Assembly: GCA_964446685.1 (NCBI GenBank)
Contig: CAYUPO010000001.1
Location: 104,502-168,501 of the forward strand
From: an uncultured Gammaproteobacteria bacterium
GTDB taxonomy: Bacteria > Patescibacteriota > Microgenomatia > Daviesbacterales > UBA10151
DNA length: 64,000 bases
Reading direction: 5' to 3'
Position 1 is the first letter of the stretch. Each line of letters opens with the position of its first letter. Below, piece after piece: positions 1-55,479 of this stretch. The notes below the pieces were generated by a model. The model was not told the origin of the DNA. It saw only the letters and a program-made list of their open reading frames with translations, and searched no databases. The position numbers were made by a program, and so were the translations under genes.

Positions 1-159
1 TATCATATTTTCCCTGTCATTCTGATCCGCCAGCTGGCGGAGAAGAATCTCTGAACCGATTCGGCCTGAGGGCTCACGGTCTCGAAGACTTGTTTCAGAT
101 CTTAGACCTCGCATTCGCGAGAGATCCTTCACTTCGTTCAGGATAACATGCTCCAGCCC
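1..159. repeat. cluster of palindromic elements downstream of purE (GTCATTCTG..., CCGCCAGCTGGCGG, and CTGAACCGATTCGG...CTTGTTTCAG copy at 51-98)
   Basis: 51-98 is nearly identical (2 indels) to 27965-28011 inside rarA. Confidence 0.6.
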
Positions 160-675
160 TTATTTGTTTAAATATTTTTTATATCCTGCTTTTTCTAACT
201 TGGCATTTTTTTCTAAAACCATTTTCTCCAAATCTTTCATGTAATTATTTAACATGCTAGTTAGTTTTTCATCACTAGCAGCTAATATTTTTACTGCCAA
301 AAGTCCGGCATTTTTTGCTCCATTGATAGCAACAGTTGCAACTGGAATCCCAGGAGGCATCTGAACTATCGAATAAAGTGAATCTACTCCACTCAGTGTT
401 TTTGTCTGAACCGGTACTCCGATGACTGGTAAAGTTGTCAGTGATGCAACCATTCCTGGTAAATGAGCTGAGCCACCAGCTCCAGCGATAATTACTTTCA
501 ACCCTCTCTCCTGAGCTGATTGAGCATAGTCATACATCAGCTTAGGAGTCCGATGAGCTGAAACAATTTTTATCTCATATTCAACCCCAAACTCTTCCAG
601 CATTTCGGATGCCTCTTTCATAATCGGCAGATCAGAATCAGATCCCATGATGATACTTATAATAGGTTTATGCAT
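160..675 (-). CDS. purE: N5-carboxyaminoimidazole ribonucleotide mutase (PurE)
   Basis: 171 aa; [18 protein letters not shown] motif typical of class I PurE; adjacent to purK. Confidence 0.9.
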
Positions 676-767
676 AATTTTTTTTGTATTTTCTCACTTC
701 GTTCGAAAAATATTTTAATGCGGAGCAGCAAGCTCTGCTTATTGTTCGAGAGAATTCGAGAACTTTC

Positions 768-1895
768 CTAAATGCTAATGTATTTCCTCGCTGCTCTGGC
801 TTTTTTCCAGGCGTCGTTAATACTTTTTCCAACGGCATTGATATGACCCATTTTTCTTTCTATTTTAGTTTCGGCTTTTCCATACAGATGAATAAATACC
901 CCAGGAATTGCCAGAGCCCTTTCCATCCCTTTAACTTCAGATGCACCTGACCTGGTTCCTAAAATATTGACCATCACCACTGATGGATATATTAACTCAG
1001 TTTTGCCCAAAGGCATACCGGTAATTGCCCGGATGTGTTGTTGGAATTGATTGGTGAGCGAAGCGTCCATCGTGTAGTGCCCACTGTTATGAACCCGGGG
1101 AGCTATTTCATTAACTATCACTTTTCCCTGCTTGGTAACAAACATTTCAATTCCAAAAATCCCTGCGCCTTTTAATACTTTCATAACTTCGGCTGCTGTT
1201 TCCTCAGATTTTTTTATAATATTTTTGGATACTCTGGCCGGAACAAAAACAGTATGACAGATATTATTTTTATGAACTGTTTCAACAACCGGATGAGTTT
1301 TTATTTCACCTTTGGTATTTCTGGCCACCATTACTGCAACTTCTTTGCTAAATGGAATCCAACCTTCAACATACAACGATTTACCATGAAGTTTTTTTAA
1401 AGCATAATCGATTTGAGTTTTGTTTTTGATTACCACATTTCCTTTTCCATCATAGCCCCCTACTCTGGCTTTTAAAACTAATGGATATCCCAGTTCTTCG
1501 GCTGCTTTTTCAATATCATCTTTGGTTTCAATCGCCATAAATGGAGCCACCGGAATTTTGTATTTCGTTAAAAATTGTTTTTGGATTAACTTATCTTTGA
1601 TTATTTCCAAAGTTTTAGCAGATGGGTTGACACTAATTCCTGATTTAGCCAGTTCATCCAGTAATACTGAATTAGCCAGTTCCCACTCGATGGTTAAAAA
1701 ATCAGATCTCTCAGCTAATGTTTTCATTGCTTTTGGATCATCCAGACTGGCCAGAATCTGTTTGTCTGCTACCTGACCGGCAGGAGAATTTGGCGTAGGA
1801 TCCAGCACAGTCACAAAAAAACCCAATTTTTTTGCTTCAAAAATCAACATCCGTGCTAACTGCCCTCCCCCAACTATTCCAATTCTATTTTTCAT
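768..1895 (-). CDS. purK: N5-carboxyaminoimidazole ribonucleotide synthase (PurK, ATP-grasp)
   Basis: 375 aa; IGIVGGGQLARM N-terminus, ATP-grasp core, overlaps purE operon partner. Confidence 0.9.
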   Translation of the reverse strand: MKNRIGIVGGGQLARMLIFEAKKLGFFVTVLDPTPNSPAGQVADKQILASLDDPKAMKTLAERSDFLTIEWELANSVLLDELAKSGISVNPSAKTLEIIKDKLIQKQFLTKYKIPVAPFMAIETKDDIEKAAEELGYPLVLKARVGGYDGKGNVVIKNKTQIDYALKKLHGKSLYVEGWIPFSKEVAVMVARNTKGEIKTHPVVETVHKNNICHTVFVPARVSKNIIKKSEETAAEVMKVLKGAGIFGIEMFVTKQGKVIVNEIAPRVHNSGHYTMDASLTNQFQQHIRAITGMPLGKTELIYPSVVMVNILGTRSGASEVKGMERALAIPGVFIHLYGKAETKIERKMGHINAVGKSINDAWKKARAARKYISI

Positions 1896-2541
1896 TGTTA
1901 ATTGATTGTATTATATCTGGAATTTCTCTTAAATCCTCAATAACATAGTCTGCCAAAGAGAAGTCGATTGTTTGATTATGAGTGCCTTTACGAGCTATAA
2001 GAATCATATTTGCAGACTTTGCTGCATTAAACCCATGAACTGAATCTTCAATTACTACTGATTCAATTGGACTGACATTTAATAAGTATGCCGCTTTTAA
2101 GAAAATTTCGGGATCTGGCTTTGACTTTTTTACCATAGTACCAAACATTTTTGCGTTAAAAAAATCTAATAAATTATTCCGGCTTAATACCGCTTCAGCA
2201 TATTTTTCTTCTGTTGATGTAGCTAATGCTTGTTTATACATTTTTGACAGTACATCCATTACTTCATATGCAAAAGAAATGGTACCTACTTTATTTACAA
2301 AATCTTCTTCTATTAGCTGATTGCGTGCATCCATTAATAAATCCAGATTAATCTTTTTTCCACTTTTTTTAATTACATCATTAAATTCTTCCTCAATCTT
2401 GGTACCCGAATATCTTTTTGTAATTTCTTCTGGAGTAATATTAATACCTGATGATTTCAGGGCTTGTGATTCAATCTGGGCATGAATATGTTCAGAATCT
2501 ATTAACACTCCATCCATATCCCAAATTATTGCTTTTATCAT
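1885..2541 (-). CDS. HAD-superfamily hydrolase (beta-phosphoglucomutase-like subfamily IA)
   Basis: 218 aa; IIWDMDGVLIDSE motif I; C-terminal GDxxxD-like motif. Confidence 0.6.
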   Translation of the reverse strand: MIKAIIWDMDGVLIDSEHIHAQIESQALKSSGINITPEEITKRYSGTKIEEEFNDVIKKSGKKINLDLLMDARNQLIEEDFVNKVGTISFAYEVMDVLSKMYKQALATSTEEKYAEAVLSRNNLLDFFNAKMFGTMVKKSKPDPEIFLKAAYLLNVSPIESVVIEDSVHGFNAAKSANMILIARKGTHNQTIDFSLADYVIEDLREIPDIIQSINNEK

Positions 2542-2584
2542 AATTAAATTTTCTGTCGTAATAACAATCTAACAATTCAACAAT

Positions 2585-3988
2585 CTAAACAATTATTTTT
2601 CTTATTTTATTTACCAGTTTTTTTGCTCTTTGTGGTGCAGTTCCGAGATGGTTTGTGATCTGTAAACATTCGTTGATCTCGGGTGAAGAAAGGAACTGTT
2701 TAATGTATTTATCCTGAGTAATATTTTCTGCAAGTTCGTTTTTTTCTCCGTTTTGAATTTTATCCCATGAAGCTATGGCATAATCTCTGATCAGATGATG
2801 CATTTTTTGCCTGTCAGCGCCTTTTTTAACTGCTTTTAAAATAACTTCTTCAGTGGCAGTAAATGATGCAAATTTTTCTAAATTGTTTTTTACCTGAGTT
2901 GTATTGACGGTAAAATCTTTAGCAATTTTTTGTGATGAAGAAAGGATTTCATCAACGGCTAAAAACATTTCCGGCATATATGATCTTTTATTGGCTGAAT
3001 CATCTATTGTCCGCTCCAAAAGTGATAAAGCTGCATTGTCCCAGGCGTTTCTTTCAAGGGAAACAACTAATCTGGCCAAGGAACAAATTTGTTCTGACTT
3101 GATCGGATTTTTCTTAAAAGGCATCGCGGATGACCCAACCTGATTTTTGCCAAAAGGTTCAACCCATTCGCCAAAGCCTGCTGACTGGAGGACTCTAACA
3201 TCAAAAGCAAATTTATGCAGTGATTGAGCGATTGATGAAAGCAGTTGGGCAACTAAAGTATCAAATTTACGGGGAGATGTCTGACCGGCAATTAAAACCG
3301 GTTCTACTCCAAGATTTGTCATAATTTGTTTTTCAAAATCGGCTGATTCCTTTTCCCCAATTAACTTACTGTAACTAGCGGCTGTTCCAACAGCCCCTTT
3401 TAATCCTTTGGCTCTAAACTGTTTTTTGACAAATTCCAGATGCTCCAAGTCCAGCAATAAATCCTGAGCATACATCGCCAGACGATAACCAATAGTTGTT
3501 GGTTCAGCTGCCTGAAGATGGGTATAGGCTAAAGTTGGAGTTGTCAGATACTGATCGATTTTATCGGCAAAAATATTTAATAGCTCTTTTAGGCTTTTTT
3601 CAGTAATACTAAGCGCTTCCTGAACTCTAAGTGAATCAGTATTATCTACAATATCCATACTGGTTGCGCCAAGATGGATTTTACCTCCCCCTACTACTGC
3701 TTTCTCTGCAAATTCTCTGATTCCTGCGACAAGGTCATGGTGTGTTTCTTTTTCAATTTCAGAAATCCGATTTATATCAATGTTATTTTGATTCTTTTTA
3801 AGATCAGCGAGTTCTTTCTTTGAAACCAAACCAAATTTGGCCTGAGCAGTTGCTATTTCCACCCAGATTTTTCTCCATAACTGATATTTTCTTTCTTCTG
3901 AAAATATTTGTCTCATTGCTGCGCAGCCGTATCGCCAGGAGAAGGGGGATTGAAATGTAGAGTAATCAGTTTTCATTATTAACGACAT
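2585..3988 (-). CDS. purB: adenylosuccinate lyase (PurB)
   Basis: 467 aa; fumarate-lyase family signature GSSAMPFKKNP; overall PurB-like. Confidence 0.9.
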   Translation of the reverse strand: MSLIMKTDYSTFQSPFSWRYGCAAMRQIFSEERKYQLWRKIWVEIATAQAKFGLVSKKELADLKKNQNNIDINRISEIEKETHHDLVAGIREFAEKAVVGGGKIHLGATSMDIVDNTDSLRVQEALSITEKSLKELLNIFADKIDQYLTTPTLAYTHLQAAEPTTIGYRLAMYAQDLLLDLEHLEFVKKQFRAKGLKGAVGTAASYSKLIGEKESADFEKQIMTNLGVEPVLIAGQTSPRKFDTLVAQLLSSIAQSLHKFAFDVRVLQSAGFGEWVEPFGKNQVGSSAMPFKKNPIKSEQICSLARLVVSLERNAWDNAALSLLERTIDDSANKRSYMPEMFLAVDEILSSSQKIAKDFTVNTTQVKNNLEKFASFTATEEVILKAVKKGADRQKMHHLIRDYAIASWDKIQNGEKNELAENITQDKYIKQFLSSPEINECLQITNHLGTAPQRAKKLVNKIRKIIV

Positions 3989-4028
3989 TGCGAGAATGAG
4001 TCTTCGAATGACGAAGCAATCTCACAAC
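3985..4028. repeat. palindromic-element family member (CATTGCGAG...GACGAAGCAAT)
   Basis: shares the CATTGCGAG / CTCGCAATG core with 4154-4167. Confidence 0.4.
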
Positions 4029-4097
4029 ATTAAGTCAACCAAGTAACAAAGTTAATTCTTAGAAACAGATTGCCGCGCGTTAATTCTTAGTAATTTC

Positions 4098-4167
4098 GCT
4101 CGCCACGATCAGTTTCATGATTGTGGCTCGCCACGATCAGTTTCATGATTGTGGCTCGCAATGACGG
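4098..4167. repeat. 28-bp tandem direct repeat x2.5 (GCTCGCCACGATCAGTTTCATGATTGTG)
   Basis: two perfect units 4098-4125 and 4126-4153, then a partial third. Confidence 0.8.
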
Positions 4168-5291: not shown

Positions 5292-5615
5292 TCAACTGCC
5301 CCCTACATCTGTCATTCTGGCTTGTCCAGAATCAAACAAAGTAGTATACAAATCGACCATTTCTGGATTCAAACTTTCTATCATTTTAAGTTTATTATCC
5401 CTATTCATATTTTTTATTTGTTTTTCCCGGATAATTCCTTCTATCTGTCCTTCAACAACTTCATAGTACAAAAGCTTATGCAAATGATACTTCCTAGTAA
5501 ATCCATCTACCAATTCTTCTTTATGCTCAGTAACTCTTTTTATTAAGTCACTTGTGACACCTGTATACAATGTAGGTCTATTATTACCCATAATGTAAAC
5601 ATACATCTGTTTCAT
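5292..5615 (-). CDS. GIY-YIG nuclease family protein (COG2827/YhbQ-like URI domain)
   Basis: 107 aa; YVYIMGNNRPTLYTGVTSDLIKRVTEH = GIY-YIG core; bracketed by inverted repeats 5311-5333 / 5624-5690. Confidence 0.7.
   Translation of the reverse strand: MKQMYVYIMGNNRPTLYTGVTSDLIKRVTEHKEELVDGFTRKYHLHKLLYYEVVEGQIEGIIREKQIKNMNRDNKLKMIESLNPEMVDLYTTLFDSGQARMTDVGGS
5311..5333. repeat. left inverted repeat flanking GIY-YIG gene 1 (GTCATTCTGGCTTGTCCAGAATC)
   Basis: reverse-complement halves found at 5624-5635 and 5680-5690. Confidence 0.65.
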
Positions 5616-5623
5616 CTTGTTTA

Positions 5624-5690
5624 GATTCTGGACAGATATTTTTAAGGCTAAGTTAATTCCAATCTAAACAATTAAGGTAGCCAGAATGAC
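5624..5690. repeat. right inverted repeat flanking GIY-YIG gene 1 (GATTCTGGACAG ... GCCAGAATGAC)
   Basis: RC of the left-repeat halves, split by a ~44-bp spacer. Confidence 0.6.
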
Positions 5691-7424: not shown

Positions 7425-8996
7425 TTATTCCCATTCCATAGTTGCGGGAGGCTTTGTTGTTATATCATAAACTACTCTATTAACTTCTGTTACTTCGGTT
7501 ACTATTCTGTTTGAAATTTTCATTAATAATTCAAATGGTAAATTAGCTACATCTGCACTCATGGCATCTTTAGCATCCAGAGCTCTTAAGGCAATTGTTT
7601 CTCCATAAACTCTTTGATCACCTCTGACACCGGTTGTTTTGATGTTTGTAAAAATAGCAAAAGCCTGCCAGAGTTTGTCCTGCAATTTGGCTTTTAAAAT
7701 CTCTTCCTGGACTATAAAATCCGCTTGCCTTAAAATCTCTAAATTATAGTCAGTGACAGCTCCAATGATTCTAACTGCAAGGCCTGGACCTGGGAATGGC
7801 TGTCTTTTAACCACTGAATCCGGCATTCCCAGCAATTTACCAACCTGTCTGACTTGATCTTTATAAAAAAGCCGCAAAGGCTCAATTAGGGCCAGTTTCA
7901 TGACTTCTGGTAGCCCACCAACATTGTGATGGGACTTTATATTCTGAGAATGTTTGGTTCCCTGACTTTCTATCACATCTGGATAAATTGTGCCCTGGAC
8001 TAGAAATGTGGCACCAATCTTTTTGGCTTCTCTGTCAAAGATATCTATGAATGTTTTACCAATAATTTTTCTTTTGGTTTCCGGATCAACTACTCCTTTT
8101 AAGGCAGATAGAAATTCTTTTTTGGCATTAATGATCTGCACTTTCATGTGATAATGGTCTTTAAAAACTTTTTTCAAAACATCAGTTTCTCCTTTTCGCA
8201 TTAGTCCTGAATCAATATAAAAAGAAGTAAGCTTGGTTCCGATTGCCCGATGAACTAAGAGAGCAGCAACTGATGAATCGACTCCGCCGGATAAAGCGCA
8301 GATCGCTTTTTCATTACCAACCGACTCTTTAATATCTTCAATCATTTCAGCTACATATTTTTTATTTAAGGGAGATAACTCTGGTTTTAAACCACAGATT
8401 TTTAGAAAGTTGGATAAAATTGTTTCACCAAATTGGGTATGCACTAACTCTGGATGAAACTGAATACCAAAAAGTTTTCTTTTTTCATCTGACATAGCAG
8501 CCACAGGAATAGTTTTGGTAGTGGCATTTGTGACAAATCCTTTTGGTGGTTTCATTACTGAATCTCCATGCGACATCCAGACATTAAATTCCTCAGATGT
8601 TCCTTCAAATAAAGAATTTGCTTTTGATACCTTTCCTACATTTGATACCTTTAAATTAGCTGGCCCATACTCCCGTATTTTCCCTGGTTTTACATCTCCT
8701 TTTAAAAGGTGTGCCATCAGTTGCTGCCCATAACAAATCCCTAAAATTGGAATACCTAATTTAAATACCTCTTCAGAAATAGTTGGACTATCTTTTTCAT
8801 AAACAGAAGACGGCCCTCCTGAAAAAATAATCCCCATAACGTCATTCCCGCGACCTGTACTGAGCGAAGTCGAAGTAAAGCGGGAATCTAAATCAATATT
8901 CTCTGGCAAAATAATTTTTGTCTTCACCCCAAATTCATTTATTCTCCGGGAAATCAGATGTGTTGATTGTGAACCAAAATCGATAATTATTATCAT
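7425..8996 (-). CDS. guaA: GMP synthase, glutamine-hydrolysing (GuaA), carrying a 48-bp in-frame palindromic-element insertion
   Basis: 523 aa; GATase CYGQQ, FHPE, PP-loop SGGVDSSV; extra DSRFTSTSLSTGRGND encoded by repeat at 8841-8888. Confidence 0.9.
   Translation of the reverse strand: MIIIIDFGSQSTHLISRRINEFGVKTKIILPENIDLDSRFTSTSLSTGRGNDVMGIIFSGGPSSVYEKDSPTISEEVFKLGIPILGICYGQQLMAHLLKGDVKPGKIREYGPANLKVSNVGKVSKANSLFEGTSEEFNVWMSHGDSVMKPPKGFVTNATTKTIPVAAMSDEKRKLFGIQFHPELVHTQFGETILSNFLKICGLKPELSPLNKKYVAEMIEDIKESVGNEKAICALSGGVDSSVAALLVHRAIGTKLTSFYIDSGLMRKGETDVLKKVFKDHYHMKVQIINAKKEFLSALKGVVDPETKRKIIGKTFIDIFDREAKKIGATFLVQGTIYPDVIESQGTKHSQNIKSHHNVGGLPEVMKLALIEPLRLFYKDQVRQVGKLLGMPDSVVKRQPFPGPGLAVRIIGAVTDYNLEILRQADFIVQEEILKAKLQDKLWQAFAIFTNIKTTGVRGDQRVYGETIALRALDAKDAMSADVANLPFELLMKISNRIVTEVTEVNRVVYDITTKPPATMEWE
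8841..8888. mobile_element. 48-bp palindromic element inserted in-frame in guaA
   Basis: GTCATTCCCGCG...CTGAGCGAAGTCGAAG...GCGGGAATC; exactly 16 codons. Confidence 0.7.
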
Positions 8997-9523
8997 AAAT
9001 TATTTAAAATAAACTCCATTCTTTTTTCCGATTTCATAACAGGTACCCTGACAACCGTGTGACCATATTTTATATATGTTTCCTCTAATAAGCTATCTAT
9101 CTCTTTTGCTTCTTCTGCAGTCTCTGTTCTGGAATAATCTTTTGAGTATTGCAATAAATCAAAGATAAATACTTTTTTATATTTACTTAGTTTGGCAATT
9201 TCAGATAACTCATACTCATCTGTTATCCCACATTTTTTCAAATACGCAATGGAATCATGCATCCCCCTATCAAAAAAAATCATTTCATTCTTAGACAAAG
9301 ACTTTTCAAGTTGAATTTTTAAATTTACCTGAGCTTTTTGGAATTCAATTTCATTTTCTCTAATCTGTTCCAGAGTTCTACCTTTTTTCAACTCTTGATC
9401 AATTAGTTTTCTAGCAACCTCTTCAGTAATTTTAAACCCTTTTTTGCTTAATAATTTAAGCACTGTGGTTTTGCCTGATGATGGAGGACCTGTTATCACA
9501 TACCAATTATTCTGACTATTCAT
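8993..9523 (-). CDS. P-loop NTPase / predicted small kinase (AAA_28-like)
   Basis: 176 aa; Walker A GPPSSGKTT. Confidence 0.5.
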   Translation of the reverse strand: MNSQNNWYVITGPPSSGKTTVLKLLSKKGFKITEEVARKLIDQELKKGRTLEQIRENEIEFQKAQVNLKIQLEKSLSKNEMIFFDRGMHDSIAYLKKCGITDEYELSEIAKLSKYKKVFIFDLLQYSKDYSRTETAEEAKEIDSLLEETYIKYGHTVVRVPVMKSEKRMEFILNNL

Positions 9524-10468
9524 TTATGTGGTGTAAACACTTTTCCTGCCTACTTTCTGTCTTAATATTTGTCCTAAAACATGCCAGTTGCTAAAACTAA
9601 ATGAATTGACTCCTTTTGGAGGAGTTGCAACTTCTTGGTAATTTCCAAATAGTACATTCCCAGCAACAGCCATCTGACCATCTTTTACAGGGTCATCTCC
9701 AAAGTATATTACTTTATCAGCATGTTCATGAATTAAAGAAAGATCTAAGTCATCATGTGGGAAACCGGGTAAATCAAGCCATCTCCTTACTGCTAGTGCT
9801 AAAGAGAAGGGTGATGGCTTAACTATATTCTTACCATCAAGTGAAGAGACACCTCTAATGTCATCTTCTGACACAATAATATCTGGTTGAGACAATCCAT
9901 GTTTTTTAAATGTTTCTTCAATAAATAATTCATGACCTGAGGAAATATTTGCCGTTGTAATCGGGACACCTTCTTTTTTTAGATCATCGACAGTTTTCCA
10001 AAAATCAACAAATCCTCTACAAGGGCGTGGCCAAATATCTTTTTCAGATAATTTCATACCTATTTGGGGCATCATACTTCTTTGCTTTTGTCTAACAAAT
10101 ATTTCAGTCAATGCTTCCGTAGTTAATGGTTTTGTTAAATCCAATTCATACCCTTTTCCAACTGGCACATAACCATCTAGTAGCTCTAAGTTCTGGTGAG
10201 CGAATTCACCTGCTAAATTAACCAATTTAGCATTATTTCTTGCTGAAGAACCAGTAACAAGTGCTTTAACCACTTCGCTTGGGGCTCGGTTACGTAATCC
10301 ACCTTGAGCTAAATAAAGATTTAATCCCATTTTGCCAAACATCCTCTCAACAGTTTGTTCATAAGCTACTGGCACACTGGCAATCCCCGGCGCCATCTCG
10401 CTAGTCCTAAACTGGGTATTATCAAAATCAAACGCCAGTAATAATCCTTCAGGGGAATGGCGTTTCAT
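9524..10468 (-). CDS. HAD-like hydrolase (putative phosphatase)
   Basis: 314 aa; motif I FDFDNT, motif IV FGDDPVKD. Confidence 0.45.
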   Translation of the reverse strand: MKRHSPEGLLLAFDFDNTQFRTSEMAPGIASVPVAYEQTVERMFGKMGLNLYLAQGGLRNRAPSEVVKALVTGSSARNNAKLVNLAGEFAHQNLELLDGYVPVGKGYELDLTKPLTTEALTEIFVRQKQRSMMPQIGMKLSEKDIWPRPCRGFVDFWKTVDDLKKEGVPITTANISSGHELFIEETFKKHGLSQPDIIVSEDDIRGVSSLDGKNIVKPSPFSLALAVRRWLDLPGFPHDDLDLSLIHEHADKVIYFGDDPVKDGQMAVAGNVLFGNYQEVATPPKGVNSFSFSNWHVLGQILRQKVGRKSVYTT

Positions 10469-14292: not shown

Positions 14293-14340
14293 ATTAATTT
14301 GAAATTTGAAATTAGAAATTAGAAATTAGAAATTTAAATT
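14293..14340. repeat. AT-rich tandem heptamers (GAAATTA/TTTCTAA x5) just downstream of the pgi stop
   Basis: read directly. Confidence 0.6.
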
Positions 14341-26504: not shown

Positions 26505-27146
26505 ATGAGATCTGATTCAGAGAAACAGCTTGAGAAAGTTACAAGTATGCTCGAAAAACAACGGCGTGAAGCTTTATTGTTGGCCTTTCGAGCAGAAGAA
26601 GCTAGACAATTATTGCTAAATGGAACATTTTCACCTGACAAATTAATAAACGAATTAATAGGTGATCTAAATCATTTTGGTACGGTTGAGCACAGAGGTC
26701 ATGCAGTGGTAGATTTCAAAGAGATAGCTCGCCGTTTGGAGGGATCATCTGTAATAAATACTGAGATTCCGGAAGACAGAATAGTTTCTGCAGGCCCTTA
26801 TAGTTTAAATGCAACTACAAGATTACTCACGATTAGTGGCCCTTATAAAGCCATTAATTTAGGATCAAATCAAGAAATAGTAAAAAAGCTGGATAATATC
26901 CCAACCCGTCTTTTAGAAATACTTATGGTAAATGCTGGAAGAATTGTGCCTTATATAAGTATGGAAGACTGGGGATGGCAAGATGATGGGTTTGATCACA
27001 GATTGCATATATCTCCTTATATGAGCCATATCAGAAATGCAGTTTTGGATTCAAAAAATCCTAAAAATCCTACCAGATTCAGACTGATAAATAATCACAT
27101 CCAGGCTGGTTATTCATTTGATTTTGACAATACTTTAAGAAGATAG
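26505..27146 (+). CDS. hypothetical protein
   Basis: 213 aa ORF. Confidence 0.4.
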   Translation: MRSDSEKQLEKVTSMLEKQRREALLLAFRAEEARQLLLNGTFSPDKLINELIGDLNHFGTVEHRGHAVVDFKEIARRLEGSSVINTEIPEDRIVSAGPYSLNATTRLLTISGPYKAINLGSNQEIVKKLDNIPTRLLEILMVNAGRIVPYISMEDWGWQDDGFDHRLHISPYMSHIRNAVLDSKNPKNPTRFRLINNHIQAGYSFDFDNTLRR

Positions 27147-27401: not shown

Positions 27402-28718
27402 TCAAGTAATTTTATTTTTTAGATATTTTTTATCTTTTAATTTATCAGGCAGTAAACTTTGATCTGTATACATTTCATAGCCTTTGCCGTATCCCACCTC
27501 TTTCATCAGCTTGGTTGGTGCATTTCTTAAGCTCATTGGTATAGGTAAATTGCCGTATTGTTTGACATCGGCCTGAGCTGCTCTGAATGCATCATAGGAT
27601 GTGCGGTCTTTTTTGGCAGATGCCAGATACACCACTCCATGAGCTAAATTAATACCACACTCTGGGTAGCCAATTGTTTCACAGGCTCTGAACACTTCAT
27701 TTGCCACAACCAAAGCTGTGGGTTGCGCCATACCAATATCTTCAGAAGCAAAGATCACCATTCTTCTGGCAATAAATAAAGGATCCTCCCCTGCTTCAAT
27801 CATTCTGGCTAAATAATAAAGAGCAGCATCAGGATTTGATGCCCGCATTGATTTGATAAAAGCTGAAATTGTATTGTAATGCTCTTCCCCGCCTTTGTCA
27901 TAAGCTAAAGCTTTGTGCTGGAGAGCCTCTTCAATAAGTTCTTTGGTGATTCTACCCTTGTCATGCTGAACCGATTCGGTCTGAGCCTCACGGTCGAAGA
28001 CTTGTTTCAGCATCTTCCCCTTGAATAAGTTCTCATTTTGATCAGCTTGAGAATTGGCAGATCCTGAAACAAGTTCAGGATGACAAAAATACGAAGCTAT
28101 TTCCAAAGTGTTCAAAATCATTCTGGCATCTCCGTTTGAATGTTCAATTAAAAATTCCTGAGCATCTTTAGCAATTTTTAGTTTTAAGTTTCCTAATCCT
28201 TTTTCTTTGTCTTTTAAAGCCCGGTTTATTAACTCTGAAATATCTTCCGGTTTTAGAGACTCTAATACAAACACTCTGGAACGGGATAACAACGGGGAAA
28301 TAATCTCAAAGCTGGGATTCTCAGTCGTCGCCCCAATCAGAGTGATTGTGCCATTTTCAACATATGATAAAAATGCATCCTGCTGGGCTTTATTAAAACG
28401 ATGAATTTCATCAATAAAAACAATAGTCTGCTTTTTTGAAAATAAAGTCCTTTGCCCTTTTAACTCTTCAAAGATTTTTTTCAGATCAGCTATTCCGGTA
28501 GTAACCGCTGAAAATTCCATAAAATCTGAATCTGTTTCATTGGCAATAATCCGGGCTAAGGTGGTTTTACCGACTCCCGGAGGACCCCAGAACATCATAG
28601 AAAAAATCCGGTTTTCTTTAATTGCGTTATAAAGCAGTTTACCAGGAGCTAAAATATGCTTTTGACCAACATAATCAGCGAGGGACTGCGGACGCATTCG
28701 GTCAGATAATGGAATCAT
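27402..28718 (-). CDS. rarA: replication-associated recombination protein A (RarA/MgsA AAA+ ATPase), carrying an in-frame palindromic-element insertion
   Basis: 438 aa; Walker [10 protein letters not shown], Walker B FIDEIH; repeat copy at 27965-28011 encodes [15 protein letters not shown]. Confidence 0.85.
27965..28011. mobile_element. palindromic element inserted in-frame in rarA
   Basis: GCTGAACCGATTCGGTCTGAGCCTCACGGTCGAAGACTTGTTTCAGC; paralog of 51-98. Confidence 0.65.
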
Positions 28719-35393: not shown

Positions 35394-35692
35394 CGTCATT
35401 CCAGCGAAAGTCATCGATTCTGAGGTCTAACGCCTCCACCTCCAGACTCGAAGAGCAGGCATCTGTAATAACAGGTTAGCAATTCATTAAATTTTCACCT
35501 AGTTATCAGAGAACAGATTCCCCTTTACAGGGGAATGACGTTTACTAGTTAATTATTAACTGACTTCCGGCCACAGCGGTAGTGGTTTCCGTCATTCCTG
35601 CGAAAGCAGGAATCTGTTATAACTGGAACTAACTAGGAAACTATTGAAACCCTGTATGAAAACAGCAGATTCCCCTTTTCAGGGGAATGACG
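35394..35692. repeat. array of at least four GTCATTCC-type palindromic elements in the folD-yjjX spacer
   Basis: 35516-35540, 35590-35616, 35666-35692 are clear hairpins (ATTCCCCT/AGGGGAAT, ATTCCTGC/GCAGGAAT); 35394-35430 is degenerate. Confidence 0.75.
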
Positions 35693-35697: not shown

Positions 35698-36243
35698 TTA
35701 ATTATAAAGTTCCGGGTTAATGAATCTGACTAGTGCTGATAGAACTCCAGATCTGTAAGCATCAGTTCTGGTAATCAGATTTTTTGTTAATAAACCAAAC
35801 TGTCCTTCCGCCTGCTTGGTATTTTTTCTTTTATATAAAATATCGCAGGCATCACCCAGTTCAAGTCCCTTTTCTAAAACCATTTCCATCATCTTATGCG
35901 GAGTATGCATTCTGATACTGGATCCAATACCCATTTTGCCACTTTTTTCAAAAACTATCACCCAGCCTGAATCAACATATTCTGAACCAATTTTTTGAAT
36001 TCCGCCTTCAATCCCTACTCCAAAATCAGCTTTTAGCTCTTTCAAAGCTCTTTTAGCCCGATTGATAGCCCCTTTAACTGATTCTTTATCCGACATTGGT
36101 TGATCGGAAACCCCGGAAGCTACATCAGACCCATTAACAACCCATTCTATCTCAGGCCAAACATCACTAAAAGCCAACCTAACAGCTTCCACTTTGACCG
36201 GATTTTTTGAACCAACAGCAACCGTTTTTCTTGGTTTATTCAT
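35698..36243 (-). CDS. yjjX: non-canonical purine NTP phosphatase (YjjX-like ITPase/XTPase)
   Basis: 181 aa; N-terminal VAVGSKNPVK, FGVGIEGG motif. Confidence 0.65.
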   Translation of the reverse strand: MNKPRKTVAVGSKNPVKVEAVRLAFSDVWPEIEWVVNGSDVASGVSDQPMSDKESVKGAINRAKRALKELKADFGVGIEGGIQKIGSEYVDSGWVIVFEKSGKMGIGSSIRMHTPHKMMEMVLEKGLELGDACDILYKRKNTKQAEGQFGLLTKNLITRTDAYRSGVLSALVRFINPELYN

Positions 36244-36415
36244 AGTTAAATTTCTAAGTACTAATTTCTAATTACTAAATAATGTCTAATGAATAAATTC
36301 TTGCTTCGCAATGAATAAATTCTTGCTTCGCAATGAATAAATGTCTAAAGAGTTTAGTCATTAGTATTTGGGATTTGTTTAGGAATTAGAAATTAGAGTA
36401 ATTAGAAATTTTTCT
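36244..36415. repeat. AT-rich spacer with inverted TTTCTAATT / AATTAGAAA heptamer arms plus a 23-bp direct repeat (AATGAATAAATTCTTGCTTCGCA x2)
   Basis: read directly. Confidence 0.6.
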
Positions 36416-38556: not shown

Positions 38557-38667
38557 AAAAAAACAAGTGGATCAATTTGGATCAAAATAATTTAGGATTG
38601 AAAGTTTAAATTTTATATTTAGAACTGAAGTAAATTAAACTATTTTACTAATTAACTAATTCACTAA

Positions 38668-40248
38668 TTAACTATTAAATATTTCGGCGGCGATTCTGAT
38701 GACTTCATCATCCTGAGCTAGTTCGACATTGGCTAGCTCTTCGACTCTGACCGGTCTCTGGCTTAAAGTGGTGGTTACCCGGGCTGGTTTTCCTAAAACA
38801 TCAGTTAAAACTGATTCAAGCAAATTTCGGGAACGGGGAGTTTCCAATATCCTCTGATGGAAAGCATAAGGCACCTCCAAAATCACTATCCCATTATCAC
38901 AGCCCATCAGATTCGCCTGTTTAAGCAGCGCTTCCAGGGAAAAATTGTCAGGTCTGATGGTTTCTAAAATATAATCCCATTTTTCCCGCAATACGATGAT
39001 TTCATGGGAGGGAGCAATCTCCACCTGCTCTTTGAGCATCTGATGGGGCGGGATCTTATCATCTTTCCCTGTATTTACAGGCTGTGAGGGAGAGGATATT
39101 TCACCAATTGTCTGAACCATAGTCATCTGAGGCGCAATCATGTTTGGAGAAATGACCGGAGCCTGAATTCCCAGACAGCTTTCAACTACGGCAACTTCAA
39201 GTGGAAGTGTTGGAATTGAGGTGTATTTTAACTGTTCTAAACTATCTTGAATTAGCTGAATGGAATGCACTAGCTCTCTTTTATTAAATGCAGTAGCCAA
39301 AGTCGTTAATTCTTCATAAATCTCACTACCAAACTGTTGTTTAACACTGATACCTGCCTGAGACTGAATTAGCATCAGCGAGCGCAACACCTCCAGTAAT
39401 TGGGTTGTTCCCTCTTTGACATTTGCCCCTTTTTCCGACAGCTGATAAATAACTGCCAATGCATTGGCGGAATCTTTGCGGGAGATAGCTCCTGCCAGAT
39501 TTAAAATATCTTTAAAACTGGTTGATTTAAGACCTTCTTCGACAGACTGAAGCGTGATTTTTCCTCCGGAGGAAGCGATCTGATCCAGCAGCTTCAAACC
39601 GTCTCTAAAACTCCCGTCCGCTTTACGGGCCAGCAACTTTAAAGCGGCTTCTTCAGCTTCTATTTTTTCTTCTTTGACTACCCGGGATAAAGCTTTAAGC
39701 AGATCTTCTGTGGAAGCAGTCTGAAAATCCAGACGTTGCACCCTGGACAAAATAGTTTGTGGCAGCTTATGCACTTCAGTGGTCGCCAAAATAAAAGCAA
39801 CATGAGAAGGAGGCTCTTCCAGAGTTTTTAGCAAAGCATTAAATGCTTCTGTAGTCAGCATATGAACTTCATCAATAATATAAACTTTTTTCTTAGCCTG
39901 GGTCGGAGCTAGTTTTATCCGCTCCTTCAGATCCCGGATATCATCAATTCCCCTGTTTGAGGCTGCATCAATCTCCATTAAATCCAAATTGGATCCATCA
40001 GTGATAGACAGACACATATTACATTTATTGCAAGGAACTGTTTCCATCTCAGTTCCTTTAACTTCACAGTTGATCATTTTAGCCACTATCCTGGCAGTTG
40101 AAGTTTTACCAGTGCCCCTGGGGCCGCAAAAGAGATAAGCATGGGACAGTTTTTCTGCCTGGTGAGCTTTGAACAGGGTTAATTTGATCTGATCCTGACC
40201 AATAAGTTCTGAAAGTGTTTGTGGACGATACTTGCGATAGAAAACCAT
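38668..40248 (-). CDS. dnaX: DNA polymerase III subunit gamma/tau
   Basis: 526 aa; GPRGTGKTS, zinc module CNKCNMC, SRC/sensor motifs. Confidence 0.9.
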   Translation of the reverse strand: MVFYRKYRPQTLSELIGQDQIKLTLFKAHQAEKLSHAYLFCGPRGTGKTSTARIVAKMINCEVKGTEMETVPCNKCNMCLSITDGSNLDLMEIDAASNRGIDDIRDLKERIKLAPTQAKKKVYIIDEVHMLTTEAFNALLKTLEEPPSHVAFILATTEVHKLPQTILSRVQRLDFQTASTEDLLKALSRVVKEEKIEAEEAALKLLARKADGSFRDGLKLLDQIASSGGKITLQSVEEGLKSTSFKDILNLAGAISRKDSANALAVIYQLSEKGANVKEGTTQLLEVLRSLMLIQSQAGISVKQQFGSEIYEELTTLATAFNKRELVHSIQLIQDSLEQLKYTSIPTLPLEVAVVESCLGIQAPVISPNMIAPQMTMVQTIGEISSPSQPVNTGKDDKIPPHQMLKEQVEIAPSHEIIVLREKWDYILETIRPDNFSLEALLKQANLMGCDNGIVILEVPYAFHQRILETPRSRNLLESVLTDVLGKPARVTTTLSQRPVRVEELANVELAQDDEVIRIAAEIFNS

Positions 40249-40445
40249 ATGAGGATTCTTAGATTACCATAGTTCCACAGTAAAGGGTCAAGATAGAAGA
40301 ATAACTATGGAACAGATAGAAAGAGGTAAGTCCTGAGGAAATTTCTAATTTCTAATTACTAATTGACCTAAATAAATTCCAGTTTCTAAGAAGCTAAACT
40401 ACTTAAACATTATTTAGAAATTAGGTTAATTAGAAATTAGAAATT
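40249..40445. repeat. AT-rich spacer with inverted TTTCTAATTTCTAATTACTAATT / TTAGAAATTAGG..TTAGAAATTAGAAATT arms (dnaX-ybeY)
   Basis: read directly. Confidence 0.6.
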
Positions 40446-41301: not shown

Positions 41302-41425
41302 AGTTAAAATTTCTAATCACTAATTGCACTAATTCCTAAATAAATCCAAAATCAGAATGTCTAAAAATTAGGATTTAGAAATTTAGTATTGTTTAGTAAT
41401 TAGAAATTAGTACTTAGACATTGCT
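41302..41425. repeat. AT-rich spacer with inverted TTTCTAAT / ATTAGAAA arms (yqeY-rpsU)
   Basis: read directly. Confidence 0.55.
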
Positions 41426-41629: not shown

Positions 41630-41866
41630 AAACTGGGTTAGTAGATCGTTTTTTGTATATCGTGTATCGTTAATCGTATATCGGAAAACAGATTCCTGCT
41701 TTTTCCGATAAACCATACACGATTTACGATTCACTATTACGATTTACTAATAAAAACACCTCCTTTGGTAATTCTAACACGATTATCGCATTAGTTTGAT
41801 CTATTTTACCACAAAAAACCTAATTTGGGGAAACAAAAGCAAAGTCACCGTTTAGACAAATACTTG

Positions 41867-41882
41867 CTGAGCGAAGTCGAAG
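41867..41882. repeat. left IR of GIY-YIG gene 2 (CTGAGCGAAGTCGAAG)
   Basis: perfect RC at 42222-42237; the same 16-mer lies inside the guaA insert. Confidence 0.8.
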
Positions 41883-41928: not shown

Positions 41929-42198
41929 ATGAGTAGCTGGAAATGGTTTGTGTATATTTTAGAATGTCAGGATGGAAGTTATTACACTGGATTAAGTTAT
42001 AGATATGATCAGCGATATGAACAGCATTTATCTGGATTGGGAGGTAAATACACAGCTAACCATGGAGTTAAAAAATTAGTATATGTTGAGGAATATGATA
42101 ACTTCGAGGAAGCTAAGTTAAGAGAAAACCAGATCCATGGATGGACAAGAAAAAAGAAAGAAAACCTAATAATAGGCAAATGGACAAAATGGCAATAG
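41929..42198 (+). CDS. GIY-YIG nuclease family protein (COG2827/YhbQ-like), second copy
   Basis: 89 aa; WFVYILECQDGSYYTGLS...QH core; bracketed by perfect 16-bp inverted repeat CTGAGCGAAGTCGAAG (41867-41882 / 42222-42237). Confidence 0.7.
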   Translation: MSSWKWFVYILECQDGSYYTGLSYRYDQRYEQHLSGLGGKYTANHGVKKLVYVEEYDNFEEAKLRENQIHGWTRKKKENLIIGKWTKWQ

Positions 42199-42221: not shown

Positions 42222-42237
42222 CTTCGACTTCGCTCAG
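42222..42237. repeat. right IR of GIY-YIG gene 2 (CTTCGACTTCGCTCAG)
   Basis: perfect RC of 41867-41882. Confidence 0.8.
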
Positions 42238-46745: not shown

Positions 46746-46889
46746 TTTGAAGCTTAAGAATAATGCAATTGAACCGAAGAATCAATAGAAGGTATCAGAT
46801 TAGAATATCAAATATCCAATGCCAAATATCAAATATCCAAACTTAGTATTGGTATTTATTTGATATTGGATATTAGATATTGGATATTT
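46746..46889. repeat. AT-rich spacer with inverted CAAATATCAAATATCCAA / TTGGATATTAGATATTGG arms (rseP-frr)
   Basis: read directly. Confidence 0.6.
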
Positions 46890-47444: not shown

Positions 47445-47452
47445 GTTGTTTA

Positions 47453-47479
47453 CAGATTCCTGCTTTCGCAGGAATGACG
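47453..47479. repeat. palindromic element CAGATTCCTGCTTTCGCAGGAATGACG between tsf and frr
   Basis: same hairpin type as 35590-35616 and 51427-51450. Confidence 0.7.
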
Positions 47480-47495
47480 ATTGCAAAGGTTCAAA

Positions 47496-51373: not shown

Positions 51374-51450
51374 CGTCATTCCCCTGAAAAGGGGAATCTG
51401 TAAATACCTAAGAGTAGGCACCGCATATTCCTGCTTTCGCAGGAATGACG
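51374..51450. repeat. two palindromic elements between the thyA-family gene and dcd-like gene
   Basis: CGTCATTCCCCTGAAAAGGGGAATCTG and ATTCCTGCTTTCGCAGGAATGACG. Confidence 0.75.
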
Positions 51451-51452
51451 TT

Positions 51453-53157: not shown

Positions 53158-53170
53158 TTTAATAATTGTA

Positions 53171-54325
53171 TTACCTTTTTCCAATAACAAATTCCGTCCC
53201 TGTAATTCTCGAAATAATTGCCCTTAAAAAAGTCAGTGAACACGACTTAATGAAACTATCAATGATCCATGATTCTTTTTTTGTTAATAGTTCTTCTAAA
53301 TATGCAGGGTTGTATCTTACAAGATTAGATAAATAGAACATTATTAAATATATTGCAATTGTTTCATTCATTGGAATCTGTTTATTAATTTTATAAGGTA
53401 ATGAAGTTACAAACTCTAAACCATCATCAAAATAATTCACTTGAGCTATAGAACCAAGTGATTCTAGAACTAAATTCCTACATTTTTTTTCTGGGATTAT
53501 ATCTGGATTATCCCAAGGGATTGTTTGTCTACTTTGAAAAAAAGTAAAAGCTAATATAATATCTCTGCTAACCTGGAAATATTCTCTTGCATATTTTTCT
53601 GGAACCTCGACTAGTTCAAATTTATCAAAAAAAATATTTAAAGACTTTTTATATTTTTTAAATTCATTAAAATTGGGAATACCAACTAAAGGCCATGCTG
53701 TCTTATTACTATGGTCAACTAAATTTACATAGTAACAGCTTTCAACTTTTCTTCTTCCATATCCAGCTATTAATGATTGATAAGAAATATCCGTACAATA
53801 ACTTAGTAGCTGTTCGACACTTAGAGACTGTTTTTTAATTGGAGATTCACAAAACATTTCATAAAATCTTTCAAAGACTCCATTATCTTTTATAATTTTA
53901 ATTGTTTGTTTTTTTATTTTTGTAAAATCTTTCGGAAGACAACTTGCACCATGGCTTATTCTTTTACCTCCAATCTCGGGATTCTTTTGAATGATTAATG
54001 CCTTTGCTAAATTCAAAAAACAGTAGTAATAAAGTAATGCTGCAGATCTAGGATGAAGCTGCTTTGCAGCATGATAATAATTTTTTGCCTGTCTAATATA
54101 GCCCTGAAAATGCTTGTAAGTGGTTTTTATTTTTCTTCTTGCAACACCTTGCTCGAGTAAATGTTTAATTCCAACTGATTCGATTTCGGAATAATATTCT
54201 ATTAATATCCATAGTTCATCATCTATTTGCCCATCCGTTTTCAAACCTTGCAAATTTCTAGTACTTAATGGTTGTCTAATCCATCCCGAAGCTGCTCTAA
54301 AAGTTCCTGTAGGAATTTCACTCAT
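53171..54325 (-). CDS. hypothetical protein
   Basis: 384 aa; AT-rich codon usage; no family recognised. Confidence 0.4.
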   Translation of the reverse strand: MSEIPTGTFRAASGWIRQPLSTRNLQGLKTDGQIDDELWILIEYYSEIESVGIKHLLEQGVARRKIKTTYKHFQGYIRQAKNYYHAAKQLHPRSAALLYYYCFLNLAKALIIQKNPEIGGKRISHGASCLPKDFTKIKKQTIKIIKDNGVFERFYEMFCESPIKKQSLSVEQLLSYCTDISYQSLIAGYGRRKVESCYYVNLVDHSNKTAWPLVGIPNFNEFKKYKKSLNIFFDKFELVEVPEKYAREYFQVSRDIILAFTFFQSRQTIPWDNPDIIPEKKCRNLVLESLGSIAQVNYFDDGLEFVTSLPYKINKQIPMNETIAIYLIMFYLSNLVRYNPAYLEELLTKKESWIIDSFIKSCSLTFLRAIISRITGTEFVIGKR

Positions 54326-54947
54326 TTATAAGTAATCCAGTTATTTCTTTAAATAAATCTTCTTTGCTTTGCATACCATCTATTACTTTGACTGTATCAG
54401 GATGAGCTGAAGCAAATGTCAGATAACCTTGTCTTAATTTTTCTAAAAATTGGACGCCCTGCATCTCATAAATCAGATCCTGACCTTTTCTATCAGCATT
54501 TGCTCCTCTTTTGATACTTTCTTCAGTCGGTATATCGATAATGATAAATAAATCCGGATAAGCACCTGAATTTTTAACACAGTATTCTGATAAGGTATCA
54601 AGTAGACTGAGATCAACCCCCTGAACTATCCCCTGGTAAACATAGGTTGAGGATTCAAACCGATCTGTAATCACCATTTTCCCGGCATCAAGATTTGGTT
54701 TAACAACTTGATCCATAAACTCGGTTCTAGCGGCGTAAAAAAGGAGAGTTTGGGTAACTGGATTGGCCATTTGGTCACGAGGTTTTAAAACGACTTCTCT
54801 AATCTCTTCGCCCATTTGGGTCCCCCCAGGTTCGCGAGCTAAGACGACATCAGTACCAAGATCTAGGAAATATTTTTCAAGCATTTTGGCCTGGGTAGAT
54901 TTACCACAGTTGTCGATGCCTTCTAGTACTATGAATTTACCTTTCAT
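54318..54947 (-). CDS. tmk: thymidylate (dTMP) kinase
   Basis: 209 aa; LEGIDNCGKST P-loop, DRF/LID features. Confidence 0.85.
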   Translation of the reverse strand: MKGKFIVLEGIDNCGKSTQAKMLEKYFLDLGTDVVLAREPGGTQMGEEIREVVLKPRDQMANPVTQTLLFYAARTEFMDQVVKPNLDAGKMVITDRFESSTYVYQGIVQGVDLSLLDTLSEYCVKNSGAYPDLFIIIDIPTEESIKRGANADRKGQDLIYEMQGVQFLEKLRQGYLTFASAHPDTVKVIDGMQSKEDLFKEITGLLINE

Positions 54948-55053
54948 AACAATTAAATATCCAAAGTCAAATGTCTAATGCCAAATGTAGAATGTCAAAT
55001 TTCCAATGATGTATTGGACATTTGTCATTTGACATTGGTAGTATTTGACATTT
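54948..55053. repeat. AT-rich spacer with inverted CAAATGTC.. / GACATTTG.. heptamer arms (tmk-mazG)
   Basis: read directly. Confidence 0.6.
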
Positions 55054-55398
55054 TTATCTCTTATCCCCGCTTCCTCCTAGTTTGCCTCTTTCCATTCGCG
55101 AATAAAGTTTTTTGATATTTTTCTCAGCTACTTCTTCCAGATTAACATCCAGCTCTGAAGCAATTTGAGTCAGATACCACAAGACATCTCCTAGTTCTAA
55201 TGTCAGCATCTCTTTATCTTCCTGCGTGATCTCCCCTTTTTTATCACGAAAAATTTTTTTAATTTTTTCGGATATCTCTCCTGCTTCACCGGATAATCCC
55301 AGCACAGGGTAAATTATCGGATGACCAATTGGCGGATATCCAGCAGTTTTACGAGAGTCTTTTTGATAGTTTCTGAAACTATAATTGGTTTTCTTCAT
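55054..55398 (-). CDS. MazG-like all-alpha nucleoside triphosphate pyrophosphohydrolase
   Basis: 114 aa; LGLSGEAGE..ELGDVLWYL metal-binding motifs. Confidence 0.65.
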   Translation of the reverse strand: MKKTNYSFRNYQKDSRKTAGYPPIGHPIIYPVLGLSGEAGEISEKIKKIFRDKKGEITQEDKEMLTLELGDVLWYLTQIASELDVNLEEVAEKNIKKLYSRMERGKLGGSGDKR

Positions 55399-55403
55399 TT
55401 TTT

Positions 55404-55479
55404 GTCATCCCGAACTCGTTTCGGGATCTACCCTTTTGTATAACCTCGGCAGATGCTGAAACAAGTTCAGCATGACAAG
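55404..55479. repeat. two palindromic elements between mazG-like gene and pyrG (GTCATCCCGAACTCGTTTCGGGATC; GATGCTGAAACAAGTTCAGCATGAC)
   Basis: second one shares CTGAAACAAG with the 51-98 / 27965-28011 variant. Confidence 0.65.

Follow-up and report, generated by a model that had tools for sequence, protein, structure and literature searches.

Dispersed CGTC/TGTC-tagged hairpin repeats, probably of the NTS/SRM class, and Ssn-type nuclease genes in a Daviesbacteria-like genome of the Candidate Phyla Radiation

The DNA analysed here (the window) is a 64-kb stretch of contig CAYUPO010000001.1, with a G+C content of approximately 38% and nearly all of its genes on the minus strand. It contains a dispersed family of short hairpin-forming repeats, together with two genes for single-domain GIY-YIG nucleases. 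We consider it probable (roughly 0.8) that the repeats are repetitive extragenic palindromic (REP) hairpins with a CGTC or TGTC tag, that they belong to the NTS/SRM class associated with Ssn-type nuclease genes, and that they reside in a tiny, Daviesbacteria-like genome of the Candidate Phyla Radiation (CPR). The repeat/nuclease system itself is already known; what is added here is its recent expansion and the CPR host lineage. As to the host, the best matches of the ProRS encoded in the window were to Candidatus Daviesbacteria and related Patescibacteria metagenome-assembled genomes (72% at most). The EF-Ts is short (151 amino acids, aa) and the ProRS is 416 aa in length, sizes that are usual in CPR bacteria.

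Hairpin counts cover the window and a set of related loci. The strict scan called for GTCAT, a perfect stem of at least 7 bp beginning at the AT of the tag, a loop of 3–60 nucleotides (nt) and then a C. It yielded 12 hairpins, whereas 200 dinucleotide-preserving shuffles gave 0.25 on average and 3 at most; when loops were restricted to 6 nt or fewer, there were nine, against 0.015 in the shuffles. The sequence GTCATTCC occurs eight times, where 1.8 occurrences are expected. With degenerate copies included, approximately 20 units are present at 10 loci, mainly as inverted pairs with their tags pointing outward. Seven inverted pairs were identified (5311/5690, 27960/28084, 35395/35539, 35591/35691, 51375/51449, 55404/55476 and 3984/4166), and only the units at 8841 and 47456 are single. 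At six clean pairs, the ends read YGTCAT...ATGACR. The intergenic copies are situated between co-directional genes, where they take up most of the spacer; their sites are the purE 3′-end and the purP2/purB, NTPase_I-T/folD, tsf/frr, thyA/dcd and pyrG/mazG spacers. Individual units are listed in Table 1.

The anatomy of the unit was derived from 16 short-loop Daviesbacteria hairpins, 10 from the window and six from a related locus (L004), which were the only sequences used to build covariance model R1. An unpaired GTC, preceded by C or T, is found in 16 of the 16 aligned hairpins, and GTCAT is invariant. The stem is 8 bp long. Its pairs 1, 2 and 4 are always A-T, T-A and C-G, and the other five vary, with compensatory changes on both sides. 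The loop is 4 nt (GAAA or GTAA) or 5 nt (CTTGT and similar) in 10 window copies; seven further window copies have expanded or degenerate loops. The C that follows the stem is nearly invariant and is itself followed by TG or TA. No fewer than six stems are present in the 64 kb (ATTCCTGC, ATTCCCCT, ATTCCCGC, ATCCTGAA, ATGCTGAA and ATCCCGAA), with ATTCTGG found beside a nuclease gene. Folded as single-stranded DNA (ssDNA), the paired units lie well below their shuffles (z of –3.6 to –5.1); no significant gain over shuffles was obtained for 1-150, 3984-4021, 4068-4166 or the sequences on either side of the second nuclease gene (z of +0.4 to –2.0). R1 revealed no short-loop copies in the window beyond its training set, and long-loop copies scored poorly with it.

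Several loops are expanded to 28–49 nt by an inner CTGAG...TCGAAG element. This motif occurs seven times, compared with 0.5 expected; four of these occurrences are nested in tagged-hairpin loops, and another two lie on either side of the second nuclease gene. The nested arrangement, a hairpin within a hairpin, is observed at 8860-8875, 27981-27999, 66-87 and 35420-35453. L004 likewise nests other inner sequences, e.g. TTTAATACGARGTATCAAGCTTYGCTTA in two hairpins with different stems. The suggestion that CTGAG and CGAAG pair through tandem G.A mismatches is a conjecture that nearest-neighbour folds do not support.

Comparison with published repeats provides the identification. The window hairpins match the NTS consensus, CGTCATTCCCGCGMAVGCGGGAATCYRG (Chenal et al., Nat Commun 2025; PMC11893778), and R1 detects 13 NTS copies of Neisseria gonorrhoeae in 1.5 kb, with E values of 1.6e–4 or lower. 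The published SRM regular expression fits three window copies, compared with 0.04 in shuffles; as it captures only these three, the structural scan and the covariance model were used instead. NTS/SRM motifs flank ssnA; SsnA and three homologues bind the ssDNA hairpin and cut upstream of it, and cutting by SsnA modulates transformation of Neisseria meningitidis (PMC11893778). Members of the Ssn family, as defined there, are single-domain GIY-YIG proteins of approximately 90–150 aa that are assigned to CDD cd10448 (GIY-YIG_unchar_3) and cleave ssDNA site-specifically 5′ of the hairpin, but act on neither dsDNA nor RNA. That paper raises an insertion sequence-like NTS-ssn-NTS architecture as a hypothesis, not as a result. 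Di Nocera et al. (BMC Genomics 2013; PMC3733652) equate CGTC-tagged REPs with dRS3 of Neisseria and RPE-4/6 of Rickettsia. They describe dimers, in-frame copies in DNA-metabolism genes and no dedicated transposase, and report CGTC repeats from five phyla, mostly from the α-Proteobacteria; Patescibacteria are not named in the sections consulted.

The earlier note on this DNA, which was made from the sequence alone, had recognized a hairpin repeat family at ten loci. Sequences are indeed present at all ten, but their identity as published CGTC-tagged REPs of the NTS/SRM type had been missed. The copy at 1-159 was said to be nearly base-for-base that of rarA, which holds for a core of approximately 52 nt (51-103 versus 27966-28016; 48 of 54 columns in a local alignment) but not for the remainder. 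The copy given as 3985-4028 exists, but is only the left half of the pair 3984/4166, and the loci at 1-159, 3984-4021 and 4068-4166 are present but degenerate, with folds that are not significant (z of –1.3 to –2.0). The sequences of two ‘split’ copies, 5311-5333/5624-5690 and 41867-41882/42222-42237, are likewise there, but are in fact the flanks of GIY-YIG genes, which had gone unnoticed; the second of these is an inverted pair of CTGAGCGAAGTCGAAG and not a pair of GTCAT hairpins.

The first of those genes (gene 1 in Table 1) shares 44% over 89 aa with a 94-aa, NTS-flanked N. gonorrhoeae open reading frame (ORF) (E value of 3e–25 pairwise and 1e–15 in a 7.3-Gb database). The gonococcal ORF is taken to be the SsnA orthologue, and it, rather than the N. 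meningitidis protein CAX49033.1 itself, served as the reference. Against it, gene 1 ranks as an Ssn homologue by the criterion of a blastp E value below 1e–10 with 75% coverage. The catalytic residues Y7, Y17, R27, H31 and E64 are kept, and the last 15 or so codons of the ORF at 5292-5615 consist of hairpin sequence. Hairpins flank the gene on both sides (5311-5332 and 5625-5690), and its homologues in L004 and in L104, from another Daviesbacteria genome, are flanked as well.

The second gene (gene 2) is inserted between rpsU and tig, on the strand opposite to theirs. Its best structure matches are the UPF0213 entries 1zg2 (E value of 5.5e–15) and 1ywl. It is 29% identical to gene 1 and shares 36% over 75 aa with the gonococcal SsnA orthologue (pairwise E value of 1e–11, approximately 80% coverage), which is borderline. 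No NCBIfam model matched the GIY-YIG nuclease proteins. Metagenomic relatives of gene 2 (L082, L083, L084, L087 and L091) have canonical tagged hairpins on their flanks, tags outward, and another (L079) is flanked by GTCAT-CCTGAGCGTAGTCGAAGG-ATC. CTGAG..CGAAG is thus the core of a further hairpin subtype of the same class. Both nuclease genes are intact and retain their catalytic residues, the one belonging to the Ssn family and the other being a divergent relative. A literature search of incomplete coverage returned nothing on UPF0213/YhbQ proteins with flanking repeats, and nothing on REPs in Patescibacteria.

Related genomes reveal that the repeats have come or gone recently. Gene order is conserved in the relatives. 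R1 gave 14 hits in L004, all at sites other than those of the window, and no R1 hairpins were found in L003, L005-L007, L096, L097 or L101-L103. Nuclease homologues were searched for by tblastn, with both window genes and the gonococcal SsnA orthologue as queries, in 36 related loci (619 kb). An ssn homologue was found in L004 only, and gene 2 is absent from all 36. Among these related loci, the one with an ssn homologue is thus also the only one with hairpins. In a close relative (L101/L102, Ga0451708_0000044; GuaA 84%, RarA 80%), orthologous spacers measure 68, 4 and 45 nt, compared with 418, 183 and 326 nt here, and purE overlaps purC, whereas in the window purE is followed by hairpins. No hairpin is present at the tsf/frr junction in L003-L007.

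These comparisons bear on a reading at the RNA level, in which the hairpins are intrinsic terminators, or mRNA-stabilizing or processing structures selected in operon spacers. The intergenic copies all lie between co-directional genes, a few nt past the upstream stop codon, as reported for REPs, and a terminator scan flags two of the approximately 20 units. Most copies, however, lack a T-tract, and terminator-like sites in the 35.3-55.3 kb interval number 12, compared with 15.4 in shuffles. Moreover, every doublet contains both orientations, two copies are coding, Rfam has no match in the window at its gathering threshold, and the orthologous spacers of relatives (4–68 nt) have no hairpins. 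Such a role is therefore considered improbable, although a secondary effect on RNA is possible.

The two coding copies are in rarA and guaA. The alignment of RarA to that of Escherichia coli (PDB 3pvs) breaks between residues 209 and 256, which is the site of the pair at 27960-28084. Orthologues P0002-P0016 (78–88% identity, 394–399 aa) lack the 42-aa insert, and the doublet of approximately 126 nt is missing from the rarA gene of L096, a locus of the same sample series with 93% DNA identity in rarA. The window organism and a sister without the rarA insert occur together in the read sets SRR21621035-38 and SRR12762304. In GuaA, residues 37-52 (DSRFTSTSLSTGRGND) are encoded by the hairpin at 8841-8887 and correspond to a gap relative to PDB 7sbc; orthologues P0122-P0127, 84–88% identical, lack the insert. 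It is apparent that hairpins were recently gained (or lost) at many sites, including in frame in rarA and guaA.

Distant lineages have independent hairpins at the same RarA linker (L109 3637-3699, in another reading frame) and the same GuaA loop (L110 2055-2085). At those sites, the Daviesbacteria sequences P0018, P0020, P0021, P0155 and P0163 contain the hairpin-encoded peptides VILNSFQDP, RVQHDK, DSRLRGND and SSHPDLREGS. The shared linker and loop could be either tolerated sites or preferred targets.

The ssn gene with its ATTCTGG hairpins is situated between purP paralogues in the window, but beside a bPH_2 gene in L104, and at a third locus in L004. Homology between the window and L104 begins and ends at the tags, and the 3′-hairpin is identical over 26 nt. 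The gene and its hairpins therefore behave as a single, discrete unit whose locus differs from genome to genome, and the nuclease may be what mobilizes it. Each hairpin has an unpaired 5′ tag (YGTC), an 8-bp stem, a loop of 4–5 nt (longer in some) and a 3′ C(TG/TA) tail. By analogy with the characterized Neisseria and Wolbachia enzymes, the nuclease would bind the folded hairpin on ssDNA and cut a few nt 5′ of the tag. The doublets would then be non-autonomous elements of the REPIN kind, which spread via a single-stranded intermediate after being cut by the GIY-YIG nuclease.

Carried further, this mechanism would make [hairpin]-ssn-[hairpin] a novel type of autonomous mobile element, built around a GIY-YIG nuclease that recognizes ssDNA hairpins, with the doublets as its non-autonomous, REPIN-like passengers. 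We offer that extension tentatively. The tag-exact boundaries of the unit, the co-occurrence of gene and repeat and the absence from close relatives are consistent with it, as are the hairpin-in-loop copies and the repeated insertions in the RarA linker and GuaA loop. On this view, the nested copies and the repeated insertions would all have arisen where the target DNA was a hairpin or, for a short time, single-stranded.

A number of points weigh against the interpretation adopted here. When the two nuclease proteins and P0298 were looked up by exact sequence, each was found in one genomic context, which gives no evidence of multiple copies or of movement at the population level. In the scan, the ATTCTGG stems that flank ssn were found in no dispersed copy, so that a simple autonomous/non-autonomous relation is not evident. 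The flanks of gene 2 have only CTGAG repeats, without a GTC tag or a significant fold. None of the six clean pairs showed a target-site duplication when its ends were inspected, and clean empty-site/filled-site junctions could not be defined in rarA and guaA, as the neighbouring codons have also diverged. The 99% pairing and the covariation count are partly circular, the copies having been chosen for perfect stems, which leaves the enrichment over shuffles as the independent test. We know of no GIY-YIG nuclease that rejoins DNA, so that transposition would need a further partner.

The earlier description of the family as REP-like dispersed repeats, not terminators or conserved regulatory hairpins, is borne out by the scarcity of T-tracts, the lack of terminator enrichment and the absence from relatives. 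It had also correctly placed most copies in spacers and two in genes. Both orientations occur, and the presence/absence variation that it proposed as a test is found at orthologous loci. Its alternative label, miniature inverted-repeat transposable element, does not suit the repeats: target-site duplications were not seen, and the dispersed copies, whose stems are unlike those of the resident gene-carrying unit, did not arise from that unit by deletion.

A function for the host must also be considered, in which the hairpins mark incoming single strands for cleavage by Ssn and so tune natural transformation, the repeats being kept as useful. It is a common view that CPR bacteria rely on taking up DNA, and neither nuclease gene is disrupted or has lost its catalytic residues. 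Moreover, this is the only role of the system that has been demonstrated experimentally, in N. meningitidis (PMC11893778), and the ‘selfish’ status assigned in the earlier note is not established. We nevertheless regard such a function as rather unlikely to account for the family. The copies in the window and in L004 are at different sites and are absent from the closest relatives, which fits recent spread better than conserved function, and a marking role would hardly explain the inserts in rarA and guaA. The host-function and mobile-element readings are not mutually exclusive.

Table 1. Hairpin units, nuclease genes and genes adjoining or containing hairpins in the window. ‘Scan’, strict structural scan; ‘model’, covariance model R1; ‘SRM’, published SRM regular expression.
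Feature	Position	Strand	Basis or remark
Degenerate tagged hairpin GTCAT-TCT..AGA-ATC with inner CCGCCAGCTGGCGG hairpin	16-49	+	Sequence; model match 13-53 with E value of only 0.33; centroid fold has nested stems
Long-loop hairpin core CTGAAC-CGATTCGGCCTGAGGGCTCACGGTCTCGAAGA-CTTGTTTCAG-ATC	50-101	+	Portion resembling the rarA copy
Degenerate partner hairpin GTTAT-CCTGAACGAAGTGAAGG-ATC	123-147	-	Sequence; model match 119-150, E value 4.7, not significant
purE	160-675	-	Hairpin 16-49 is just 3′ of it
Degenerate hairpin, tag GACAT, stem ATTGC/GCAAT	3984-4021	+	8 nt upstream of probable purB start at 3976; fold z –1.4
Degenerate inverted partner CGTCATTGCGAGC...GCGGCAATCTG	4068-4166	-	Fold z –1.3; loop has perfect 28-nt tandem duplication, 4098-4153
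Gene 1, Ssn-family single-domain GIY-YIG, 107-aa ORF (domain approximately 92 aa)	5292-5615	-	Pfam PF01541, E value 5e–11
3′ boundary hairpin of ssn unit, GTCATTCTGGCTTGTCCAGAATC	5311-5332	+	Scan; model E value 2.7e–4; last GIY-YIG ORF codons read through
5′ boundary hairpin of ssn unit, same ATTCTGG stem, 49-nt loop	5625-5690	-	Scan
guaA	7425-8996	-	
Single hairpin inside guaA, stem ATTCCCGC, CTGAGCGAAGTCGAAG nested in loop	8841-8887	+	Scan; encodes DSRFTSTSLSTGRGND in frame
rarA	27402-28718	-	
Left unit of rarA pair, stem ATGCTGAA, loop 35 nt	27960-28013	+	Scan
Right unit of rarA pair, stem ATCCTGAA, loop CTTGT	28061-28084	-	Model E value 3e–8; whole-pair fold z –4.3
Left unit, pair 1 of folD/NTPase_I-T spacer; degenerate, long loop CTGAG..TCGAAG, 6/8 stem pairs	35395-35463	+	Pair fold z –3.6
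Right unit, pair 1, hairpin CGTCATTCCCCTGTAAAGGGGAATCTG	35517-35539	-	Scan; model; SRM
Left unit, pair 2, hairpin CGTCATTCCTGCGAAAGCAGGAATCTG, identical to 47456-47478	35591-35613	+	Scan; model
Right unit, pair 2, hairpin CGTCATTCCCCTGAAAAGGGGAATCTG, identical to 51375-51397	35669-35691	-	Scan; SRM; model
Tagless CTGAGCGAAGTCGAAG, left inverted repeat of second GIY-YIG unit	41867-41882	+	3 exact copies versus 0.18 expected; no significant fold
Gene 2, single-domain GIY-YIG, 89 aa, UPF0213-like	41929-42198	+	Pfam PF01541, E value 1e–15
Tagless CTGAGCGAAGTCGAAG, right inverted repeat of second GIY-YIG unit	42222-42237	-	Sequence count
Single hairpin in 50-nt tsf/frr spacer	47456-47478	-	Scan; model
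Left unit of thyA/dcd pair	51375-51397	+	Scan; SRM; model; pair fold z –5.1
Right unit of thyA/dcd pair, tail ATATG not ATCTG	51427-51449	-	Model
Left unit of mazG/pyrG pair, stem ATCCCGAA	55404-55427	+	Scan; model; pair fold z –4.1
Right unit of mazG/pyrG pair, stem ATGCTGAA	55453-55476	-	Scan; model

The predicted ORF starts of purB and frr run into hairpins (3976-3988 and 47445-47486). A purB start at 3976 (giving 463 aa, as in L101) and an frr start at 47445 are more likely. A second perfect tandem duplication (22 nt, 2.5 copies, 36288-36342) is situated in the spacer upstream of the ORF at 35698-36243.

Many spacers of the window also contain arrays of 7–8 nt units (AATTAGA, AATATCA, ATTTGAT, AGTTAATT and others); in many cases, a second array, made of the reverse complement of the unit, comes after the first. 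They were observed at 14296-14340, 36249-36410, 38633-38678, 40340-40445, 41393-41422, 41655-41749, 46804-46888, 54955-55053, 57109-57188 and 63488-63622. Heptamer-type arrays are present in relatives as well (L101 12587-12654, TTTAAGA repeated seven times; L102 3016-3129), and arrays of 7–8 nt units form the ends of several short-read contigs. The arrays are unrelated to the GTCAT hairpins. Within topA (57913-60036), adjacent coding runs of the heptamers GTCGTCT and GCTGATG, four of each, are found at 58766-58838; a weak R1 match in this gene (58777-58801, E value of 1.1) is probably due to chance.

Five genes of the window are absent from the syntenic L101/L102: 1885-2541, 6846-7409 (plus strand), 8993-9523, 9524-10468 and 26505-27146 (plus strand). 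They encode a HAD hydrolase, an AAA_28 protein and three ORFs without a Pfam match, and two of them are among the few plus-strand genes. Over the whole 64 kb, the strong minus-strand gene bias is accompanied by a steadily falling cumulative GC skew, consistent with a single replichore.

If the identification is correct, it places the NTS/SRM-Ssn system in the CPR, in a genome of short spacers where the elements fill whole spacers and add peptides to the essential RarA and GuaA. The filled and empty orthologous sites, and a tag-bounded unit at different loci, bear on the question, left open by Chenal et al., of whether NTS-ssn-NTS is mobile, and these comparative data make it easier to test whether the ssn unit is a mobile element. 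The stems vary while the GTCAT-N-C...G-N-ATC frame stays constant; this suggests which features the nuclease recognizes, and would be useful should these enzymes become tools for ssDNA. In terms of annotation, the repeats account for odd peptides in CPR proteins (DSRLRGND, VILNSFQDP and CHPELVSGS), and they may explain breaks of short-read contigs at hairpin sites, one such contig end having been seen (L002).

Among known systems, REPINs and the RAYT transposases, reportedly the subject of work by Bertels and Rainey in 2011, resemble the present family in that the unit of gain and loss appears to be an inverted hairpin doublet, and in that one copy of the family surrounds a nuclease gene. This architecture is what speaks for classical REPs mobilized by RAYT, or for ends of the IS200/IS605 type. 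Such an origin is nonetheless very improbable: the tag is CGTC/TGTC and not GTAG, and RAYT is a Y1 HUH transposase that acts through a covalent intermediate, whereas a scan of 50 ORFs with Pfam and NCBIfam revealed neither Y1_Tnp nor any other domain of a transposase.

The Rickettsia palindromic elements (RPEs), of which RPE-4 and RPE-6 are of the CGTC type according to PMC3733652, are similar by description, being in-frame palindromic inserts in essential genes of a reduced genome. Their inserts add surface peptides, and those found here add 42 aa to RarA and approximately 16 aa to GuaA. In contrast to the RPEs, the window inserts are absent from close relatives, and independent inserts occur at the same sites elsewhere.

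The CGTC-1 to CGTC-4 REPs are closer still in form. As described in PMC3733652, they have an unpaired CGTC/TGTC tag, a stem of 8–9 bp that starts from AT, and a loop of either 4 or 5 nt (types GAAA and CTTGT, respectively). Dimers prevail, many of them heterodimers; the repeats lie immediately 3′ of ORFs, in spacers whose two neighbouring genes run in the same direction, and there are in-frame copies in DNA-metabolism genes. All of this applies to the window. The tail consensus given there is CCA, compared with CTG/CTA here, the first C being common to both.

With respect to the NTS/SRM-SsnA system (PMC11893778), there are differences. The host is a CPR bacterium of approximately 38% G+C, at least six stems occur in 64 kb and only three copies fit the SRM expression. 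The hairpins adjacent to ssn are unlike the dispersed ones, loops are often expanded by CTGAG..CGAAG, and the window has a second GIY-YIG unit, of the UPF0213-like type. Genes seldom contain NTS, whereas two copies in the window are coding. The tag, stem base and tail nevertheless agree (CGTCATTCC...GGAATCYR), and in both systems hairpins are found on both sides of a single-domain GIY-YIG gene of approximately 94 aa, the window protein sharing 44% with the gonococcal orthologue.

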